From a virus (taxonomy: Duplodnaviria; Caudoviricetes), in the IMG/VR virus record IMGVR_UViG_3300005438_000006, positions 5,852 to 69,851 of that record: a DNA stretch of 64,000 nt; one strand, written 5' to 3'. Positions 2,964-53,823 of this stretch are shown here, in pieces (position 1 is the first letter of the stretch; each line of letters starts with the position of its first letter). A program made the translations under genes and the position numbers. The notes below the pieces were generated by a model, which ran no database searches, had not been told where the DNA came from, and worked only from the letters and a program-made list of their open reading frames with translations.

Positions 2964-3233
2964 ATGGCCGCACGTCAATTTACCTACACCGACCCAGCCA
3001 GCATCGAAGGCGAACCCGCCGAGGTCGCAGAACTCGCGATCCAGCAGGTCCAGTCTCTTGCGGCGGTAGTGGCGGAGCTATCCACCAAGACCTTCGTCCA
3101 ACTCCGCGCCGCGGGCATTGACCCGGACGCCGACGACGCCGTGAAGGCGTGGCTGGAGACTGAGGACGGCAAGAAGGCTGCCGATCTGGTGTGGGGAGCG
3201 CAGGCTTTCGTTGAAGTGGCCCAGCAACTCTGA
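2964..3233 (+). CDS. hypothetical protein, leaderless
   Basis: TAGAAT at 2951-2956 lies 7 nt before the ATG. Confidence 0.65.
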   Translation: MAARQFTYTDPASIEGEPAEVAELAIQQVQSLAAVVAELSTKTFVQLRAAGIDPDADDAVKAWLETEDGKKAADLVWGAQAFVEVAQQL

Positions 3234-3316
3234 TTTGGCTCTACGAGGTCATTTCGCTCCTCTCTTTGACGTTACCGACACGATGAACCGCGCGCCATAG
3301 GCCGCGGCCGTGCGTC

Positions 3317-3344
3317 TTCATAACCAGTATGACACCTGTGTCAA
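3317..3344 (-). promoter_or_regulatory. TTGAC-N7 promoter-like motif, copy 1
   Basis: TTGACA-caggtgt-CATACT-GGTTATGAA; matches copies at 3731, 10056, 20559 and 53823. Confidence 0.55.
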
Positions 3345-3415
3345 GTCCTCCAGCGGCCGTCTCCGGTGACGTGGCCCGACGCCGCTGCTACCCCCTTCGG
3401 GGTCGCGAGGCGTCG

Positions 3416-3730: not shown

Positions 3731-3758
3731 TTGACAGGGGTGGGAGACTGGTTGTGAG
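3731..3758 (+). promoter_or_regulatory. TTGAC-N7 promoter-like motif, copy 2
   Basis: TTGACA-ggggtgg-GAGACT-GGTTGTGAG, upstream of the tRNA-like RNA. Confidence 0.45.
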
Positions 3759-3795: not shown

Positions 3796-3880
3796 CCCGC
3801 GGTAACTCAACTGGTAGAGAGCCGACGACGCTGATTAGAAGGTGTCGTTGGCCGTGCGGGTTCGAGTCCCGCCCGCGGGA
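3796..3880 (+). ncRNA. tRNA-like RNA with an elongated anticodon arm
   Basis: 7-bp acceptor stem CCCGCGG/CCGCGGG, D arm, T arm GCGGG-TTCGAGT-CCCGC; 30-nt anticodon arm (10-bp stem plus 10-nt loop). Confidence 0.75.
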
Positions 3881-3898: not shown

Positions 3899-4213
3899 GT
3901 GGCATACGAAGGCAAAATCCCATTCGATCAGCATGGCAACCCGGTGCCCTTTGCGCCCAACGCCGACGCCGTCGTGTGGAAGGACAACGAGCCGTTCCGC
4001 GCAACGCTGATCTTTAAGGGCTTCCAGCGCGGCCGCTCAGCAGCGCACGCGATCTACGCCAAGGATGATGATCCAACTTGGGAGGTTGCCATGTTCCTCT
4101 CGGACCTGAAGACCGTGATCGAGCTTGGCTGTAAACCGCAGCGTATACAGGGTCGGTTCGCCTTCGTCAAGCGTGGCCAAAACTACGGCATCAAGCTATT
4201 GATCGGACCTTGA
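3899..4213 (+). CDS. conserved phage hypothetical protein
   Basis: AAAGGAG SD before GTG 3899; F-x-GFQRGRSAA motif recalled from other phage proteins. Confidence 0.7.
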   Translation: MAYEGKIPFDQHGNPVPFAPNADAVVWKDNEPFRATLIFKGFQRGRSAAHAIYAKDDDPTWEVAMFLSDLKTVIELGCKPQRIQGRFAFVKRGQNYGIKLLIGP

Positions 4214-4267
4214 CCGGCCTGCTACGCTGGTTGCGAGCCATGATCGTCAATCGAGGAGGATACTGTT

Positions 4268-5515
4268 TTGAGTCAGATTTCGGCCGCTGAGAAGCGCGCC
4301 ATCATCGAGCGGGCGCAGCAGTTGCTCGCCGAGCCAGGCGCCACCCAGCGCACCGTCGCTGACCAGCTTCCCATCGGTCAGTCAACGCTTTGTGAATGGC
4401 TGCGCGCCGAGGGTATCGAGAATTCCGGGCAGGCTGGTGGGCCTGAGCCAGCGGGCATCACGACTGACGGCACGGACGCCTCCATCGCGTCTGACCTCGT
4501 CGCGGATGCGAGCACGCTCACGCCTGAGCAGCTACTGGAAAAGCACGGCCTTGACGCCGATGACTGGATCGTCACGTCGATCCGGGCTAGCCGCTGGGGC
4601 AAGCCGGAGGAACCGCAGTTCCAGCTTCGGGTCAACGCAACCCGGCGCGAGGGTCTTCTCGTCATCCCGGACCTCGGCGACTTCGAGCCGTGGGAGTACG
4701 GCCAGATCGAAGAGTTCGCGCCGCGGCAAGTTGCCTTGATCCCCGACCTCCACGCGCCGTTCCACGACGAGCGGGCGTTGCGGGCGGTCTGCGACCTCCT
4801 GGCGGCGGAGGAACCGGAACAGGTCATCTTCTTGGGCGACGTAGCAGACAACTCAATGCTCTCCAAGCACCGGACGCATCGGCGCTTCAGCGCGTTGCTC
4901 AACGAGACGAACGACGCCGTCGTGAAGAATTTCCGTCGGGTCCGCGAAGCCGTGCCGGAGGCAAGCATCGTCTTTCTGCCGGGCAACCACGATGACCGCG
5001 TCCTCTACTACGCCCAGGACATGGCGCCCGAGTTCGAAGGCGTCCGCCCCGGCCGCCTGCCGGAGGACTTGGACGAGCCGCTGCCGAGCATTGGCTTCCG
5101 TCAGCTTTGGCGGCTGGACGAGTTGGGCATCGAGTTGGTGGACGAGGACTGGAAACTCGCGCAGTACGGCATCACGCCCGAGCTATCCGCTCGCCACGGC
5201 TACCTGACCGGCAACAACTCCGAGCGCAAACTGCTGGAGAAGCACGGCCGCTCGCAGGTCCACGGCCACGACCACCGCGGCTCGCTGGTCTACCGGACGA
5301 AGCACGATCCGCTGGACATCCGCGTCGCGATGTCCTGTGGAACGCTCTGCGAGATTAAACCGGACGGTCTCGGCTATGAGCCGGACCCCGACTGGACGCC
5401 CGGTATGGGCTGGTGTCAGGTCTGGGAGGATGGGCTGTTCCAACTGAGCTTCCTGCCTTACGTGAAAAACAAACTGCTGACCCCGTGGGGTATGGCATTC
5501 GAGGGGAAGGAGTAA
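4268..5515 (+). CDS. calcineurin-like metallophosphoesterase with N-terminal HTH
   Basis: Motifs IPDLH, LGDVAD, PGNHDDR, RHG, VHGHDH; HTH-like ATQRTVADQLPIGQSTLCEW. Confidence 0.85.
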   Translation: MSQISAAEKRAIIERAQQLLAEPGATQRTVADQLPIGQSTLCEWLRAEGIENSGQAGGPEPAGITTDGTDASIASDLVADASTLTPEQLLEKHGLDADDWIVTSIRASRWGKPEEPQFQLRVNATRREGLLVIPDLGDFEPWEYGQIEEFAPRQVALIPDLHAPFHDERALRAVCDLLAAEEPEQVIFLGDVADNSMLSKHRTHRRFSALLNETNDAVVKNFRRVREAVPEASIVFLPGNHDDRVLYYAQDMAPEFEGVRPGRLPEDLDEPLPSIGFRQLWRLDELGIELVDEDWKLAQYGITPELSARHGYLTGNNSERKLLEKHGRSQVHGHDHRGSLVYRTKHDPLDIRVAMSCGTLCEIKPDGLGYEPDPDWTPGMGWCQVWEDGLFQLSFLPYVKNKLLTPWGMAFEGKE

Positions 5516-10055: not shown

Positions 10056-10083
10056 TTGACATCCCTTCTACACTGGTTATGAA
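10056..10083 (+). promoter_or_regulatory. TTGAC-N7 promoter-like motif, copy 3
   Basis: TTGACA-tcccttc-TACACT-GGTTATGAA. Confidence 0.6.
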
Positions 10084-21114: not shown

Positions 21115-21728
21115 CCGGCCGCGAGCCTGAAGGCCGTCGCCGCGACGGTGAGATTTACATCTCCGTTGATGTCGAGACTGATGGCCCGATTCCCGGCGAC
21201 TGCAACATGGTCAGCGTGGGAGCGTCGCTCTGTGGGAAGTTCAAGTCGTTCTCGGGGTTCTCGCGCATCGACAACGGCGCGACCTTCTACCGCGAGTTGA
21301 CAACGGAGTTCACCGGCGATCCCGACACGAAACGGTGGCTGGCTGGGCAGGGTTTTGAGATAGACAGCCCACAGGCGGTTCATCCCGCCACGGCGATGCG
21401 CCACTTCAAGGAGTGGGTCGAGCGGCTGTCGGATTCCTTCGAAGCGCGGGCGGTGTACGTGGCCTACCCGCTGGGGTTCGACTGGTCCTTCACCCACTGG
21501 TACTTCGAGCACTACCTTGGCCCGAAATCCGATCCCTTCGGGTTCAGCAACGCGCTCGACATCAAGACGATGTTCATGGCGAAGTCCGACCGCGCTCTGC
21601 TCGGCAGCCTGAAGCGCAACATGCCTCGGGAGGTCAAGCGCGTGAAGACCCCGCACACCCACAACGCCAAGGACGACGCAGTCGGCCAGGGCGAACTGTT
21701 CGCAAACCTGATGGAATGGAGGCCCTGA
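21111..21728 (+). CDS. DEDD 3'-5' exoribonuclease (Rv2179c-like)
   Basis: ISVDVETDGPIPG, AYPLGFDW, HTHNAKDDA. Confidence 0.82.
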   Translation: MTGREPEGRRRDGEIYISVDVETDGPIPGDCNMVSVGASLCGKFKSFSGFSRIDNGATFYRELTTEFTGDPDTKRWLAGQGFEIDSPQAVHPATAMRHFKEWVERLSDSFEARAVYVAYPLGFDWSFTHWYFEHYLGPKSDPFGFSNALDIKTMFMAKSDRALLGSLKRNMPREVKRVKTPHTHNAKDDAVGQGELFANLMEWRP

Positions 21729-23077
21729 TGTACAGGATGACGACGCCGTATCGAGACTTGACGATCTTCGGGGACGCTGACGACAACACGGTCGCGCAGA
21801 TGAACAACTGCCTCGACGTGCAGTCCGGCTCCAAAGGTGTGCTGTGCGCCGACAACCATCTCGGTTACGCGCAGCCGGTTGGTGGGGTTGTGGCCTACCT
21901 GGAGCGCATCAGCGTGAGCGGCGTGGGGTACGACATCGGCTGCGGCAACAAGGCTGTCGAGACGAACCTCATGGCGGCCGACGTGGACATTCCCGCGGTT
22001 ATGGATGAGATTGAGCGCCGCGTCGCCTTCGGCATCGGGCCGAACCCAGGCGAGAAGGCGCCCGACCATCCAGTCCTCGACTCCATCCGCGAGGCCGACT
22101 TCGCCCCGCAGCGGGCGCTGCTCGACAAGGCGGCGAACCAGCTTGGCACGGTCGGCGGCGGGAACCACTACGTGGACCTCTTCGAAGATCAGGATGGGAA
22201 GCTGTGGATCGGGGTCCACTTCGGCAGCCGCGGCTTCGGCCACACGACCGCCAACGGCTTCATGTGGATGTCGCGCGGCAAACCGTTCCAGACGAAGGCG
22301 GAGTTCAAGGAGGACTTGATGGCCGATCCCATCACCTTCCGCACCGACTCCGCTGAGGGCGAAGCCTACCTCGCCGCGATGAAGCTGGCGGGTGAGTACG
22401 CCTACGCCGGGCGCGACGTGGTCGTGGGCCGCGTCCTCGAAATCCTGGGCGCGGAGGCCGTCTTCGAAGTCCACAACCACCACAACTACGCGTGGGTCGA
22501 GGAACACTTCGGTGAGACCTGGCACGTCGTGCGCAAGGGCGCCACGCCCGCCTGGCCGGGACAGCTTGGCTTCGTGGGGTCCACGATGGGCGAGAACTCC
22601 GTCATCCTGCGGGGCGCGGAGGGTCTGGGGCACCGCGGCGAGCGCTCCGACCGGCAACTAGAGGCGCTGTTCTCGACGGTCCACGGTGCTGGGCGCGCGA
22701 TGTCGCGGTCCCGCGCGGCCGGGAAGCAGAAGAAACGCTGGACCTGCAACAACCGGGACTGTGACTGGTTCCAGCCGAAGGGCACGCACAAACCGGACGA
22801 TGGCAATTGCCCGAAGTGCGGCCACCCGAAACTGTCGAAGCAATGGGTGCAGATGGAGCAGGGCGAGATAGACTGGAACGCTGAACACGAGTACGTCACG
22901 CAGGCGAACAAGGTGGAGCTTCGCGGCGCTGGCGCCGAGGAGGCGCCGGGAGCCTACAAGCGGCTGCCGGAGGTTCTGGAGGTTCTGGAGGCGATGGGCG
23001 AGACCATCGAGGTCATCAACACGCTGCGCCCGTTGGGCGTGGCGATGGCGCCGAACGGGGTACCCGCCGATGATTGA
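21728..23077 (+). CDS. rtcB: RtcB-family RNA 3'-phosphate/5'-OH ligase
   Basis: CADNHLGY, GYDIGCG, GTVGGGNHY, HFGSRG, HNHHNYAW, VVRKGAT, HGAGR, EEAPGAYK; start taken at ATG 21728. Confidence 0.93.
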   Translation: MYRMTTPYRDLTIFGDADDNTVAQMNNCLDVQSGSKGVLCADNHLGYAQPVGGVVAYLERISVSGVGYDIGCGNKAVETNLMAADVDIPAVMDEIERRVAFGIGPNPGEKAPDHPVLDSIREADFAPQRALLDKAANQLGTVGGGNHYVDLFEDQDGKLWIGVHFGSRGFGHTTANGFMWMSRGKPFQTKAEFKEDLMADPITFRTDSAEGEAYLAAMKLAGEYAYAGRDVVVGRVLEILGAEAVFEVHNHHNYAWVEEHFGETWHVVRKGATPAWPGQLGFVGSTMGENSVILRGAEGLGHRGERSDRQLEALFSTVHGAGRAMSRSRAAGKQKKRWTCNNRDCDWFQPKGTHKPDDGNCPKCGHPKLSKQWVQMEQGEIDWNAEHEYVTQANKVELRGAGAEEAPGAYKRLPEVLEVLEAMGETIEVINTLRPLGVAMAPNGVPADD

Positions 23078-23216
23078 CCCCGATGAGGAGATACGGCGCG
23101 ACTTGGAAGAACAGGCGCGCGAGGAGCAGTATCAGGAAGAACGCGAAGCCGAAGAATATCGGCGTCTGGAAGAGGAGGAATATTACCGTGAGCTTCAGGA
23201 AGCAGGTCTAGCATGA
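23070..23216 (+). CDS. 48-aa very acidic (Glu-rich) peptide
   Basis: Read by hand; overlaps rtcB and the ligase gene. Confidence 0.5.
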   Translation: MIDPDEEIRRDLEEQAREEQYQEEREAEEYRRLEEEEYYRELQEAGLA

Positions 23217-24121
23217 CTGATTTCAAGCCGATGCTGGCGCACTCCAAGTCGCCCGACCCGGAGACGCTTGACTACCCCGTGCTGGTGCAGCCCAAGCTCG
23301 ACGGCATCCGCGCCGTCGTGAAGGGCGGCCGCCTGCTCTCGCGGACGCTGAAACCGATTCCCAACGCTTCAATTCGCGCGGTGCTGGAGCAGCCGCAGTT
23401 CGAGGGTTTGGACGGTGAGCTAATCGTCGGCGATCCCACGGCGGATGACTGCTACCGGCGGACGTGCTCGTTCGTGATGGCGGAAGACAAGACTGACGAG
23501 GAGTGGACGTTCTACGTCTTCGACAAGCATGATTCCGATGCTCCCGTAGAGATACGTATCGACAGTGTTGTTCGCACTTTCGGCGCTACCGCCCCCGTTA
23601 AGCATCCCAACATCGAAACGATTATGACTAGTCCGGCGCTAAGTGCTGAGGCGTTGGCAGCCGTCGAGGCTTCCTGTATAGCGCACGGCTATGAGGGCGT
23701 AATTATTCGCACGCTTGGCAGCGCCTACAAGTTCGGCCGCTCCGGTAAACGCGGGCCGCTGCTGAAGCTGAAGCGCTACATCGACTACGAGGCCGAGGTT
23801 GTGGGGGTGGTCGAGGAGCTACACAATGGCAACGAGGCTCGGACGAATGAGCTTGGCCGCACTGAGCGGTCATCCCACGCCGAGAACAAGACCGGCAAAG
23901 GGACGCTGGGCGCGCTGATCGTTCGCGCCATCAACGGCCCGCATGAGGGCGTCGAGTTCAAAGTCGGGACCGGCTTCACTGCCGAGCAGCGCGCTGATTT
24001 GTGGTACGCAGAAGACTGCATCGGTCGCGTCGTCAAGATCAAGTCCTTCCCGGTCGGCACGAAAGACCGGCCGCGGCACCCGGTTTGGTTGGGATGGCGC
24101 GACCTGTCAGTGGACGGATGA
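23213..24121 (+). CDS. ATP-dependent DNA ligase
   Basis: QPKLDGIR, GLDGEL, FYVFD, YEGVIIR, LLKLK, FKVGTGF, RHPVWLGWRD. Confidence 0.93.
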   Translation: MTDFKPMLAHSKSPDPETLDYPVLVQPKLDGIRAVVKGGRLLSRTLKPIPNASIRAVLEQPQFEGLDGELIVGDPTADDCYRRTCSFVMAEDKTDEEWTFYVFDKHDSDAPVEIRIDSVVRTFGATAPVKHPNIETIMTSPALSAEALAAVEASCIAHGYEGVIIRTLGSAYKFGRSGKRGPLLKLKRYIDYEAEVVGVVEELHNGNEARTNELGRTERSSHAENKTGKGTLGALIVRAINGPHEGVEFKVGTGFTAEQRADLWYAEDCIGRVVKIKSFPVGTKDRPRHPVWLGWRDLSVDG

Positions 24122-48510: not shown

Positions 48511-49119
48511 TTACTTCTGGGGCGTCTCCGGCTCAGTAGGAGCAGTACCTACTGCTTTTCCAGCGAGGTCTTCGAGCGTGTCAAACAGTTCACTGAGGGC
48601 GGCGATGGCCTTCTCTTCCTCTGCATCATTCCCGAACGCTTTGCCCGCGAGGGCGAACAGGCTGCCAGCCTCCAGCGGGAGCGGCGTAACAGAAATCTCA
48701 GCGAAGTCAGCTTCGTGAACGCGGACACCATGCGGCGTCATTTTGCGCTTGAAAATGCCACCGATGGAGAAGCCTTTGATGGTGCCGGACTTGACCTTGT
48801 TGTACACATCCTCCGCCCAGGAACCTGGCGCGGGCGGATCGAGGGCGGCCTTGACGAATAGCCCTTTCTGGTCAAGCTTCACATCCTCCACAGTGCCGAG
48901 CGCCTTGTCGTACTGGTGGTGGTAGAGGAGGACGGGGTTGTCGCGGAAGTATTTGTCGAGACCCTTCTCGAAGACGCCTGGCAGGAATGCCTCGTCCTTG
49001 CGATCCAGTCCCAGCGTGGCCGCATACCCTTCGATGCGCAGCTTACCGTCCGGTGCCTGCGCGGTGACGGCTTTGCCGTCAAGGGTGAATCCCAACTCGA
49101 AGGGAGCCTGCTCTTTCAC
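48511..49119 (-). CDS. HK97-family prohead protease
   Basis: IEGYAA, PVLLYHH, GLFVKA, IKGFSIGG, EISVTPLP. Confidence 0.92.
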   Translation of the reverse strand: MKEQAPFELGFTLDGKAVTAQAPDGKLRIEGYAATLGLDRKDEAFLPGVFEKGLDKYFRDNPVLLYHHQYDKALGTVEDVKLDQKGLFVKAALDPPAPGSWAEDVYNKVKSGTIKGFSIGGIFKRKMTPHGVRVHEADFAEISVTPLPLEAGSLFALAGKAFGNDAEEEKAIAALSELFDTLEDLAGKAVGTAPTEPETPQK

Positions 49120-49297: not shown

Positions 49298-49633
49298 TCA
49301 CGCTAGCGCCTCCGTGGCGTAGGGCCACAGGTGAACGGCGTCGCAAACGACGCAGACCTTCAGCGGCTCATCGGCCACGTCCGTCAGCGTGACTTGCGCG
49401 CGGCGGCGGCATTCAGCGCGGGGAACCTGCTTGCGAATGCGCGTGCCGGGCACGGCGCCGTTGGGGAACTCCATCACGACGCTGCGGTCAGCGTGCGCTT
49501 CCTTCGCCGCGCGGCCGCCGCGGGAGATGACGGTCTTCCCAAGCTCCTCGACAACGCCTGCATCTGGAACGGACGTGACCGGCCACTCGTAGTTCGGGTC
49601 GCTCCACTCCTCATTCCAGTCCAGCGTCTCCAT
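49298..49633 (-). CDS. hypothetical protein with CxxC
   Basis: AAGGGAG SD; CVVCD. Confidence 0.5.
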   Translation of the reverse strand: METLDWNEEWSDPNYEWPVTSVPDAGVVEELGKTVISRGGRAAKEAHADRSVVMEFPNGAVPGTRIRKQVPRAECRRRAQVTLTDVADEPLKVCVVCDAVHLWPYATEALA

Positions 49634-49657
49634 GCTCTCCCTTCGTCGTTTGGTTAG

Positions 49658-49730
49658 TGGACAAGGAGGGATTCGAACCCTCGGCCTCCTGCTTGCAAAA
49701 CAGGCGCTCTGCCGACTGAGCTACTCGCCC
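49658..49730 (-). tRNA. tRNA-Ala(TGC)
   Basis: Cloverleaf; G3-U70 pair; TT-TGC-AA. Confidence 0.93.
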
Positions 49731-49889
49731 AACTACAGGGTACCGCAGGCGTCAATCCCAGGTCTTGTCGTCCGCGGCTTCGCGGAGCGTGACGCCCGCG
49801 GTGCCCTGCCCAATCGGCGGAACCTTGCTCCCGCCGGGGAGCGGTTTCGGCGCAGTCTCAGTCATCGAACCTCCTCTCGTCTGTCGGGA

Positions 49890-49961
49890 ATCCGGCCCAG
49901 GGACTTGAACCCCGACGACTTGGCTCAGAACCAAGCAGGCTGCCAATTACCTCATGCCGGA
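49890..49961 (-). tRNA. tRNA-Gln(CTG)
   Basis: U1-A72; TT-CTG-AG. Confidence 0.85.
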
Positions 49962-49962
49962 G

Positions 49963-50046
49963 TGGACCTGGCCGGAATCGAACCGGCGTTATCGCGCTCC
50001 TCCAGCGGGTTAGGCAAGGGACACGCGACCTGAACCTGTCAGGCCC
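49963..50046 (-). ncRNA. tmRNA tRNA-like-domain-only RNA (mini-tmRNA candidate)
   Basis: GGGCCTG/CAGGTCC-A with G3-U70; stemless D loop ACAGGTTCAG; 7-bp P2-like helix; 3-nt AAC connector; T arm; no tag ORF. Confidence 0.7.
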
Positions 50047-50117
50047 AAGTCCAGTGTAGCGCGCATGTAAAGGATCGGCCCGCAACCTTAACGAGTGGCG
50101 GCCGAGCATAAAGCTTA

Positions 50118-50192
50118 TCGGGCGAGTGGGATTCGAACCCACGGCCTCTCCCTCCCGAAGGGAGCGCGCTGACCAGACTGCGCTACCGCCCA
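50118..50192 (-). tRNA. tRNA-Pro(CGG)
   Basis: Cloverleaf; TT-CGG-GA. Confidence 0.9.
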
Positions 50193-50193
50193 G

Positions 50194-50267
50194 TGCCGCC
50201 CGCGGGAGTCGAACCCGCAACCTTCCGCTTCTGAAGCGGATGCCTCTGCCAGTTGGGCTAGAGCGGC
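50194..50267 (-). tRNA. tRNA-Leu(CAG), short variable loop
   Basis: Cloverleaf; TT-CAG-AA; 5-nt variable loop. Confidence 0.85.
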
Positions 50268-50276
50268 AGGTCTAGT

Positions 50277-50432
50277 TTAGCGCTTGGCTGGCTTGGAACG
50301 CCGGTAGCCGTCAACGCGGACCTTCGATTTCCCGCGGTTGCTGCCGCGCGGGGAACGCTGGTGGCCTTTGACACCTACAGCAGTACCCGAGCCAGGTTTG
50401 CGTGAGCGCTTGCGGCGTCCGCGAGTAGCCAT
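50277..50432 (-). CDS. 51-aa very basic protein
   Basis: 19 of 51 residues are Arg/Lys; VKGHQR and VDGYRR motifs. Confidence 0.55.
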   Translation of the reverse strand: MATRGRRKRSRKPGSGTAVGVKGHQRSPRGSNRGKSKVRVDGYRRSKPAKR

Positions 50433-50843: not shown

Positions 50844-52271
50844 TCACGCCGTCGCCGTGCCTTTGCGCTGGGCCTCTTCATCGAAGGTCGCCGTGTGGGC
50901 GGGGTCTGGGGTGCGACCAGGCTCACCCGGCAGCGGGCGGTCCTTCACGTCGGAAGCGTTGTCGTTTTCGCCGGGCAGGTTCAGGACTTTTTCTTCGATT
51001 TCCTTCGCCATCTTCTCGTCCTCCATGACGCTGACCAGCGGCTCCAGGTTGAACTGCTTGCGGACCTCCTTGACGAGGACGCCGGGCACCTTGGCGAATT
51101 CGCCGCCAAGCTTGAACTGGTCCTCGATGGGCATCTGATATTCGTAGTCGATCTTCAGTTGCAGCCCGAAGTCCGCGGTCAACTCGCGGGTCAGGAGTTT
51201 CTGGAGCGTGTTGAGGATCGGCCGCATCCGCTTGTTGTCGAAGTTGCGGCGTTCCTCGCCCGGCTGCGTCGTCGCAGACGATTCGTTGCTGAGGCCCAGC
51301 ATCACTTTCGGCACGCGGAACAGCGCCAGAATGCGGTCGCGCGACTGGTCGGACATGAGGCCGAACTCGGCGTTCTTGGCGTCGGACTGGATCGCCTTGT
51401 AGCTGAGGCCGCGGCCGAGGACGGCGACCTGAAATGCCTGGCGGGCGCCAGCGTAGATACCCGCGAACTGGCGGCGCAGCTTGTTGGCGGTGGAATCGGA
51501 GATTGCCTGTTCGGCCTCCAGCACGCCTTCGAGGCGGGCGCCGTTTTCGTAGTAGGCGGCCTTCGTGTCGGTAAGCGCAATCTCGCCGTCGAAGACCCGC
51601 GGACCCATCGCGATGATGCCCGCGCCGCGGTAGTCATCGTGGGGGTTGGCGCCCTTCCAGTGGATGATCTTCTCCGGGGCGATGTTGATGGGCACCTGGC
51701 CGGGGCGTTTGTATTCGTAACTCTCGATGAGTTCGCCGCGTTTGCCCGGCACGACCTCCACGTTCTGGGGCGGCAGGCGCAGAATCTGAAGCGGGCGGCC
51801 CAAGCTGTCTTCCCCGCGCTTGTAGAGGAAGCCGTCGCCGGTGATGTAGCGGTCGATGACGAAGAGTTCGATCAGTTCTTCCCAGGACTGGTAGCCGTTC
51901 GGTTCCTCCAGAAGCTGGACGAGCCAGGGGTCGGCGAGGCGGGTACCCTTCTCCGCTTCGGCGCGGGTACGTGGGGCGGTTTTGCCGTCGTAGTCCTCCA
52001 GATGCCAGTCGGCGTGCGCGGCGGTCTCCGCGATGACGCCCATGCAGTCGGCGACCCAGTCCATTGCCTTCTCGGTGCCCGACCCGTAGGCTTCAAGCTG
52101 GCGCTTGGCGGATGCGGCAGCGAAGCGAGAGCCGCTGGTCGCGCGTCCGGTCTGGGTGCCGTAGACCTCCGGCGCGGACTCGCGTAGGCCGGGGATCGCC
52201 GAGGAGCGCACTCCGGCGGCTTTCCCCTCTAGGGAAAGTGCGGAACGCAGGGTGGCGAAGGGAGAAGCCAT
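50844..52271 (-). CDS. HK97-family portal protein
   Basis: WVADCMGVIAETAAH, YITGDGF, IIHWK, GARLEG, VAVLGRG, LFRVPKVMLG. Confidence 0.93.
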   Translation of the reverse strand: MASPFATLRSALSLEGKAAGVRSSAIPGLRESAPEVYGTQTGRATSGSRFAAASAKRQLEAYGSGTEKAMDWVADCMGVIAETAAHADWHLEDYDGKTAPRTRAEAEKGTRLADPWLVQLLEEPNGYQSWEELIELFVIDRYITGDGFLYKRGEDSLGRPLQILRLPPQNVEVVPGKRGELIESYEYKRPGQVPINIAPEKIIHWKGANPHDDYRGAGIIAMGPRVFDGEIALTDTKAAYYENGARLEGVLEAEQAISDSTANKLRRQFAGIYAGARQAFQVAVLGRGLSYKAIQSDAKNAEFGLMSDQSRDRILALFRVPKVMLGLSNESSATTQPGEERRNFDNKRMRPILNTLQKLLTRELTADFGLQLKIDYEYQMPIEDQFKLGGEFAKVPGVLVKEVRKQFNLEPLVSVMEDEKMAKEIEEKVLNLPGENDNASDVKDRPLPGEPGRTPDPAHTATFDEEAQRKGTATA

Positions 52272-53574: not shown

Positions 53575-53575
53575 T

Positions 53576-53646
53576 CGGCGCAGGCGGTTCTCGAAACCGC
53601 AATCACCGGCTCGACCCGGCGGCTTTTCCTCTTTGCCTACTGCGCC
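53576..53646 (-). ncRNA. tRNA-like RNA with a shortened anticodon arm
   Basis: Perfect acceptor and T stems; arm CCGG-GTCGAG-CCGG (14 nt). Confidence 0.7.
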
Positions 53647-53648
53647 AG

Positions 53649-53798: not shown

Positions 53799-53823
53799 AC
53801 GACCAGTATATCGCTGGCGTCAA
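53799..53823 (-). promoter_or_regulatory. TTGAC-N7 promoter-like motif, copy 5 (tRNA array)
   Basis: TTGACG-ccagcga-TATACT-ggtcgt-G1 of tRNA-Met. Confidence 0.6.

Follow-up and report, generated by a model that had tools for sequence, protein, structure and literature searches.

The locus and its setting

The sequence analysed here, referred to as the window, is a stretch of 64,000 nucleotides that makes up most of the 69.8-kb IMG/VR viral contig IMGVR_UViG_3300005438_000006 (Duplodnaviria; Caudoviricetes), the completeness of which is estimated at about 59%. The contig comes from a siphovirus-type phage. Genes identified in the window include those for portal, protease, major capsid protein, tail tube, Dit, terminase, family A DNA polymerase and RtcB, and the major capsid protein, portal and DNA polymerase share no more than 33% identity with proteins of cultured phages.

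Between the portal and protease genes is a tRNA cluster that contains the gene for an 84-nt RNA, the mini-tmRNA (Table 1). The order on the minus strand is tRNA-Leu, tRNA-Pro, mini-tmRNA, tRNA-Gln, a short ORF and tRNA-Ala; the phage has 14 tRNAs. Downstream of A73 there is a single C and then U1 of tRNA-Gln, and the mini-tmRNA is likewise flush with tRNA-Gln in the related contigs L019, L021, L022, L023 and L024, which are described below. The ordinary tRNA-Ala(UGC) is 233 nt downstream of the mini-tmRNA, in agreement with the initial annotation, which had placed a separate normal tRNA-Ala about 230 nt away. A BLAST search of the locus against cultured phages returned matches to ordinary tRNAs alone and none to the mini-tmRNA, and no prophage relative was found by a portal search of prokaryote genomes.

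Table 1. Features of the mini-tmRNA and its surroundings (window positions)
Feature	Position	Strand	Remarks
Portal gene	50844-52271	-	
Promoter-like motif TTTACA-N7-TACACT-GG	50051-50071	-	-10-like TACACT at 50053-50058, 6 nt before G1
Mini-tmRNA (TLD-only RNA), G1 to discriminator A73	49963-50046	-	84 nt; RF00023 32.4 bits; model R1 47.2 bits
Acceptor stem, 5' strand GGGCCUG (G3 = 50044)	50040-50046	-	pairs with 49964-49970
Stemless D loop ACAGGUUCAG, 10 nt	50030-50039	-	unpaired in MFE fold; GG aligns with GG of tmRNA consensus
P2 helix GUCGCGU/GCGCGAU, 7 bp	50023-50029 with 49991-49997	-	encloses 25-nt variable hairpin 49998-50022
Connector AAC, P2 to T arm	49988-49990	-	
T arm GCCGG-UUCGAUU-CCGGC (5 bp, 7-nt loop)	49971-49987	-	
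Acceptor stem, 3' strand CAGGUCC (U70 = 49966) and A73 (49963)	49963-49970	-	CCA not encoded
tRNA-Gln(CUG)	49890-49961	-	ARAGORN; RF00005 41.6 bits; 1-nt spacer to mini-tmRNA
tRNA-Ala(UGC), ordinary	49657-49730	-	71.8 bits; own copy of promoter-like motif
Protease gene	48511-49119	-	

Structure of the 84-nt RNA

The MFE fold reproduces the layout of the tRNA-like domain (TLD) of tmRNA, with the 5' and 3' ends of the RNA (G1 at 50046, A73 at 49963) forming an acceptor stem of 7 bp, but its energy is ordinary for a sequence of this composition (z = -1.7), so that the argument has to come from related sequences. The alanine identity set is present as the G3·U70 wobble and A73. The parts that had been listed in the initial annotation, including the length of 84 nt, G3-U70, A73, a P2-like helix and a 3-nt connector, are all found on the minus strand, and the D loop is stemless with its GG at the tmRNA position, as had been described.

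The D loop reads GGUUCAG(G) and does not match the consensus GGxUUCGAC, a motif that is typical of the family of TLD-only RNAs and not universal there. In the window and in its relatives P2 closes 3 nt before the T arm, and only 3% of shuffled inner sequences matched the 7-bp helix and AAC of the window. The components required of an mRNA-like domain (resume codon, tag frame, stop codon and pseudoknots) are lacking, and just 25 nt lie within P2. A conserved anticodon loop is also absent.

Promoter-like motif

The motif upstream of the mini-tmRNA belongs to a set described by TTGACN-N7-TAnACTGG, of which there are 13 in the window against 1.75 expected. TACACT was found exactly 6 nt before G1, as had been stated, and the motif lies at this identical distance from the homologues in L019, L021, L022, L024 and the 5' copy in L023. 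Copies in the window include those at 3324-3344, 3731-3751, 4210-4230, 10056-10076, 49735-49755, 50051-50071 and 53803-53823. The spacing between TTGAC and the -10-like hexamer is only 7 nt. In the copies upstream of tRNA-Met, tRNA-Ala, tRNA-Leu and the mini-tmRNA, the RNA starts 7 nt past the hexamer. A search of 49500-50400 for promoters with sigma-70 spacing gave none.

Homologues in related phages

Relatives were gathered through the portal protein, giving seven related viral contigs. A homologue of the mini-tmRNA is present at the same position in five distinct contigs (L019/L020, L021, L022, L023 and L024). Common to all six members of this clade, the window included, are G1-G2-G3-C4, G3·U70, A73, the AGG and the final G of the D loop (about 10 nt long), a connector of the form RAY and the T arm. 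The inner hairpin varies from 17 to 39 nt and is unrelated in sequence among the relatives, save for a loop common to the window and L023.

In the six syntenic sequences 95.6% of the cells expected to pair do so, against 31-46% with slid partners, and 12 pairs have changes on both sides, with the proviso that the clade and family alignments were fitted to the model and so lean towards the TLD structure. The acceptor stem is paired in 100% of cells, and its pairs 5:68 and 6:67 covary both here and in 84 family members; G3·U70 is present in 6/6. In P2, 6/8 pairs have changed on both sides within the clade and 8/8 in the 84-sequence family, and 4/5 pairs of the T arm covary within the clade. The search for phage TLD-only homologues with covariation that was proposed with the initial annotation is answered by these five contigs and 12 compensatory pairs. 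Judged on such comparison, the mini-tmRNA feature exceeds chance, and 49963-50046 is a real, conserved RNA gene.

Two of the related contigs have further arrangements at this site. In L023 the mini-tmRNA gene is present twice around a homing-type gene (L023:2895-3404). The 5' copy bears the promoter-like motif and breaks off within the T loop; an HNH endonuclease ORF follows at 2978-3316 (Pfam HNH 1.4e-7), with a complete copy next to it at 3329-3404. This suggests an HNH element that targets, or has landed in, the mini-tmRNA gene. In L025, whose portal is the most distant among the relatives (63% identity), the position ahead of tRNA-Gln is taken by a different tRNA-like gene of 80 nt (L025:431-510). 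Its anticodon loop is of the CAU type, its D arm is irregular and its third acceptor pair is C3-G70; it scores 16 bits with R1, the covariance model introduced below, and is not a mini-tmRNA.

An attP-type fragment of a host tmRNA gene was also considered and rejected, as the gene has both halves of the acceptor stem as well as the promoter-like motif and is conserved within the structural module.

Model scores

At gathering thresholds, Rfam makes no report at the position of the mini-tmRNA. Scored directly with the tmRNA model RF00023, which expects an mRNA-like domain, the RNA has 32.4 bits, against 24-27 bits for the ordinary tRNAs of the window, and the homologues in L021, L022 and L024 have 27-31.5 bits. 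The gathering score of 47 bits is missed by the window RNA (23.9 bits in cmscan) and also by an accepted member of the TLD-only class, that of Mycobacterium phage DS6A, at 43.2 bits. With the upstream bases omitted, tmRNA is the best Rfam family of the tRNA clan for the window RNA. In the alignment to the tmRNA consensus, the GG of the D loop and the segment from ACG through the T arm to the acceptor match, and about 300 model positions are skipped. The mitochondrial tmRNA model RF02544 has no match to the window RNA and is equally silent in all controls.

A covariance model, R1, was built from 15 canonical phage TLD-like RNAs, with DS6A and the clade of the window left out. It finds the window RNA end to end over exactly 49963-50046 (47.2 bits, E 4e-9) and gives 41-52 bits to the other five clade members, 61 bits to the DS6A RNA and 27.3 bits to the best ordinary tRNA, a gap that is in part built in, the pattern used to gather the source family having come from the clade of the window. 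The DS6A RNA does not fit the collecting pattern, yet its R1 score is high. The earlier identification as the TLD of tmRNA without the mRNA domain is upheld by these scores, with tmRNA the best clan family and with 32.4 bits (RF00023) and 47.2 bits (R1).

A wider family of TLD-only RNAs

A first DNA pattern, built on the D loop of the window, returned three chance matches only and no tRNA-like genes. A pattern derived from the clade matched at least 120 stretches in viral contigs, which correspond to 88 unique sequences; in many, the D loop is the classical one of tmRNA, GGUUUCGAC, and the connector is GGAC. Connectors in the family are GAC (20), AAC (18), CAC (7) and TAC (3), and the D loops are 9-12 nt, including GGUUCGA forms that are one base below the consensus length. 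The caveats raised in the initial annotation, that the D loop reads GGTTCAG and the connector AAC, are correct as to the sequences, but both departures prove harmless, AAC being the second commonest connector and D loops of 9-12 nt being common.

A second pattern fixed the D loop, the GGAC connector and the T loop and left the acceptor stem untouched. It gave 66 unique RNAs of about 70-80 nt, of which 66/66 have G3·U70 and 66/66 have A73, while the pairs 4:69, 5:68 and 6:67 each occur with four or five pair types. From this pattern of conservation and change, the alanine identity of TLD-only RNAs is taken to be under selection. These searches show the class to be frequent in uncultured phages, and the gene of the window is a somewhat divergent member of this known type. 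Its branch is marked by a short D loop, a promoter-like motif of its own and a 3' end that is probably set by tRNA-Gln.

There is no sign of a hidden tag in the family. Frames of the form GCN...stop occur in 16/90 members against 18.8 expected from shuffles and are thus not enriched, in line with the earlier statement that neither a resume codon nor a tag ORF is present. A one-codon tag, GCC-UAA (Ala-stop), in the apical loop was considered and rejected, being common only to the window and L023, with frames at chance level. An inner hairpin AAA(G/A)CCGCACGCGG inside P2 is found in DS6A and in many members from uncultured phages (L146:1010-1030; L030, L036, L038, L042 and others). This conserved hairpin is absent from the clade of the window.

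Candidate RNA-repair genes and other tRNA-like RNAs in the window

Candidate RNA-repair genes are present at 4268-5515, 21413-23077 and 23213-24121, encoding a metallophosphoesterase, an RtcB ligase of 554 aa, for which the match falls into two stretches, and an ATP-dependent ligase. Together with the 14 tRNAs, they suggest a kit against host defences that cut RNA.

Two other RNAs of the window have the shape of a tRNA. The first, at 3796-3880 on the plus strand, is 85 nt with an over-long anticodon arm; it scores 38.4 bits with RF00005, is missed by ARAGORN and has a copy of the promoter-like motif about 45 nt upstream. The second, at 53575-53647 on the minus strand, is a tRNA-like gene that forms part of the second tRNA array. 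Its anticodon loop has 6 nt and its T loop is irregular; ARAGORN reports it as 'tRNA-???', and Rfam at gathering thresholds does not list it.

Proposed function

The mini-tmRNA, a tag-less, TLD-only RNA of the tmRNA type, probably interferes with trans-translation by the SmpB and tmRNA of the host. It would be transcribed from its own promoter-like motif, jointly with the abutting tRNA-Gln, with a 5' end at or near the transcription start, close to G1. A cut by RNase P at tRNA-Gln would leave a 3' end of A73 and one C, from which the CCA enzyme would finish the CCA end. The TLD layout and the conserved identity set lead to the prediction that the RNA is charged with alanine by the host AlaRS and bound by SmpB at the elbow of the D loop and T loop. 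The 69.8-kb contig, of an estimated completeness of about 59%, yielded no gene for SmpB, RF-1/ArfB or Pth, and with no SmpB gene there the partner would be the SmpB of the host. The mini-tmRNA may then compete for SmpB with the tmRNA of the host; in its charged form it may also compete for EF-Tu and for stalled ribosomes with an empty A site. Host ssrA tagging and rescue would thereby be lowered during infection. An RNA with neither a resume codon nor a stop codon cannot complete trans-translation, which makes interference the best-supported outcome. This reading matches the sole experimental report on the class, the inhibition seen with DS6A (PMC11915505). Against it stand the D loop without the UUCGAC consensus and the score under the Rfam tmRNA threshold of 47.

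In the account of TLD-only RNA given in PMC4131195, inhibition of tmRNA does not depend on alanine charging; on that account, simple titration would leave the invariant G3·U70 unexplained. The invariant G3·U70 suggests an additional action on the ribosome, for example competition at empty A sites or rescue without a tag.

An aberrant or decaying ordinary tRNA is a highly improbable explanation of the same RNA. It would be either a tRNA-Val(AAC) with an over-long anticodon arm, and ARAGORN does label the gene as an 85-nt tRNA-Val(AAC), or a cloverleaf with an insertion in the anticodon loop, as in the RF00005 match to 49963-50052 (31.3 bits, just above the threshold of 29). In that match GGACUUG (50046-50052) takes the place of the 5' acceptor strand and CCUG/CAGG forms the D stem, and both pair perfectly in the window and in L022. 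They are missing in L019, L021, L023 and L024, however, and RF00005 has no match for the homologues in L021, L022 and L024, nor for the DS6A RNA, so that the reading as an odd tRNA is unsupported. The supposed anticodon loop exists only in the window and L023, with hairpins of 17-39 nt and unrelated loops elsewhere, and positions 8-9 of the cloverleaf would be GG rather than having U8. Compensatory changes have maintained the helices, and the gene is thus not in decay. A better fit to a decayed ordinary tRNA had been named in the initial annotation as a result that would overturn it; in the comparison of Infernal models that it proposed, RF00023 has 32.4 bits and RF00005 31.3 bits, the latter reliant on the upstream strand. 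The RNA could also be an alanine-type tRNA mimic that acts outside trans-translation. It might, for instance, serve as decoy or sink for host defence nucleases that target tRNAs, bind AlaRS or the CCA enzyme, or supply activated alanine. The drift of the clade D loop from the tmRNA consensus, the two RNAs with defective anticodon arms (3796-3880 and 53575-53647) and the encoded RtcB, metallophosphoesterase and ATP-dependent ligase, which fit a kit against tRNA damage, are in favour of such a mimic. It is nonetheless doubtful, since a decoy for anticodon nucleases should retain an anticodon loop and this region is wholly unconserved here, and since the layout is that of a TLD point by point, with intermediates that connect it to canonical and DS6A-type members.

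Productive rescue without a tag is a tentative alternative, and rather unlikely. In this case the alanyl mini-tmRNA, together with SmpB, would enter stalled ribosomes and accept the nascent chain, release of the peptidyl-RNA would follow by drop-off with Pth or through an ArfB-type factor, and ribosomes would be freed with phage proteins left unmarked for proteolysis. The strict alanine identity suggests charging and hence delivery to the ribosome; tag-less organellar tmRNAs, which co-occur with SmpB, are thought to aid with incomplete mRNAs (PMC11915505); and the RNA-repair genes and many tRNAs of the phage fit a setting of RNA damage. There is, on the other side, no stop codon and so no normal termination, Pth, RF-1/ArfB and SmpB genes are among those not found in the contig, and the sole experiment on the class was of inhibition, not rescue (PMC11915505). 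A broader proposal, offered as speculation of low probability, is that the invariant alanine identity marks RNAs that are charged and act on the ribosome, and that the mini-tmRNA is part of a counter-defence kit with RtcB, the ligase, the phosphoesterase, 14 tRNAs and the two anticodon-defective tRNA mimics. Such a kit would sustain translation when host nucleases cut tRNAs and mRNAs, with the mini-tmRNA clearing or shielding non-stop ribosomes without ssrA-tagging of phage proteins.

Trans-translation is the main bacterial ribosome-rescue system, and its bearing on phage growth has been studied for phages such as lambda-P22 hybrids and Mu. A phage RNA that consists of the tRNA-like end of tmRNA alone is a simple candidate for an inhibitor or hijacker of this system. 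The TLD-only class is little studied and documented in one cultured phage, DS6A. Standard tools miss or mislabel it, with ARAGORN reporting a tRNA-Val and the Rfam thresholds rejecting it. The frequency of the class and its invariant alanine identity make the reason for charging a question that can be tested directly. To what is known of the class, the RNA of this window adds a modest amount.

Comparison with known systems

The TLD of tmRNA is characterized by alanine identity, a reduced stemless D loop to which SmpB binds, and a helix H2 that occupies the place of a long variable arm (PMC3968760, PMC3985003). With tRNA-Ala and the alanine acceptor-T minihelix, the window RNA shares G3·U70, A73, a 7-bp acceptor stem and the T arm. 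Features of the acceptor-T minihelix are expected to suffice for recognition by AlaRS, according to the statement in PMC3968760 for which Hou and Schimmel are cited. The window RNA differs from tRNA-Ala in having no D stem and no anticodon arm, and the phage has its separate, normal tRNA-Ala(UGC).

Forms without a CDS have been reported from organelles (PMC11915505). The tag-less organellar tmRNAs (jakobid and oomycete mitochondria, RF02544; Mallomonadaceae plastids) resemble the window RNA in having little beyond the TLD and no tag frame (PMC11915505), but they are organellar, AT-rich and of separate descent. Full-length tmRNA (RF00023), as in the mycobacteriophage Bxz1 group and Bacillus phage G, shares with it the acceptor stem, the alanine identity, the stemless D loop with GG, the T arm and a P2 that replaces the anticodon arm (PMC3968760). 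By contrast, the window RNA is without pseudoknots, resume codon, tag frame and stop codon, and about 300 model positions are missing. Since these mRNA-like parts are missing, the mRNA half of trans-translation is not possible for the mini-tmRNA.

The closest counterpart is the RNA of Mycobacterium phage DS6A, which is given as "TLD only" in the papers of the tmRNA Website and has little sequence beyond the TLD (PMC4131195). It was located at JN698994 28478-28557 (tmID 11587 / Phage__Mycobacterium.9). The initial annotation took the phage tmRNAs described so far to be full length, which does not hold, as the DS6A form has been in the literature since 2009-2014 (PMC4131195, PMC11915505), and the novelty of the window RNA was therefore overstated. 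A passage of PMC4131195 that cites Mao et al. 2009 has a DS6A-like molecule, whether chargeable or not, as a strong inhibitor of tmRNA, perhaps through titration of SmpB, and a database paper of 2025 states that the DS6A form expressed in E. coli inhibits the endogenous tmRNA (PMC11915505). The two RNAs are alike in their length of about 80 nt, an acceptor stem with G3·U70 and A73, a stemless D loop and a P2 that ends 3 nt before the T arm. Neither has a tag frame or an encoded CCA, both are matched end to end by R1, and both fall below the RF00023 threshold. The DS6A RNA differs in that its D loop retains the UCGAC end and its inner CCGCACGCGG hairpin is shared with many members from uncultured phages, whereas in the window RNA the D loop is shorter (GGUUCAG), the connector is AAC and the inner hairpin is unrelated, and its gene is sited in a tRNA cluster between the portal and protease genes.
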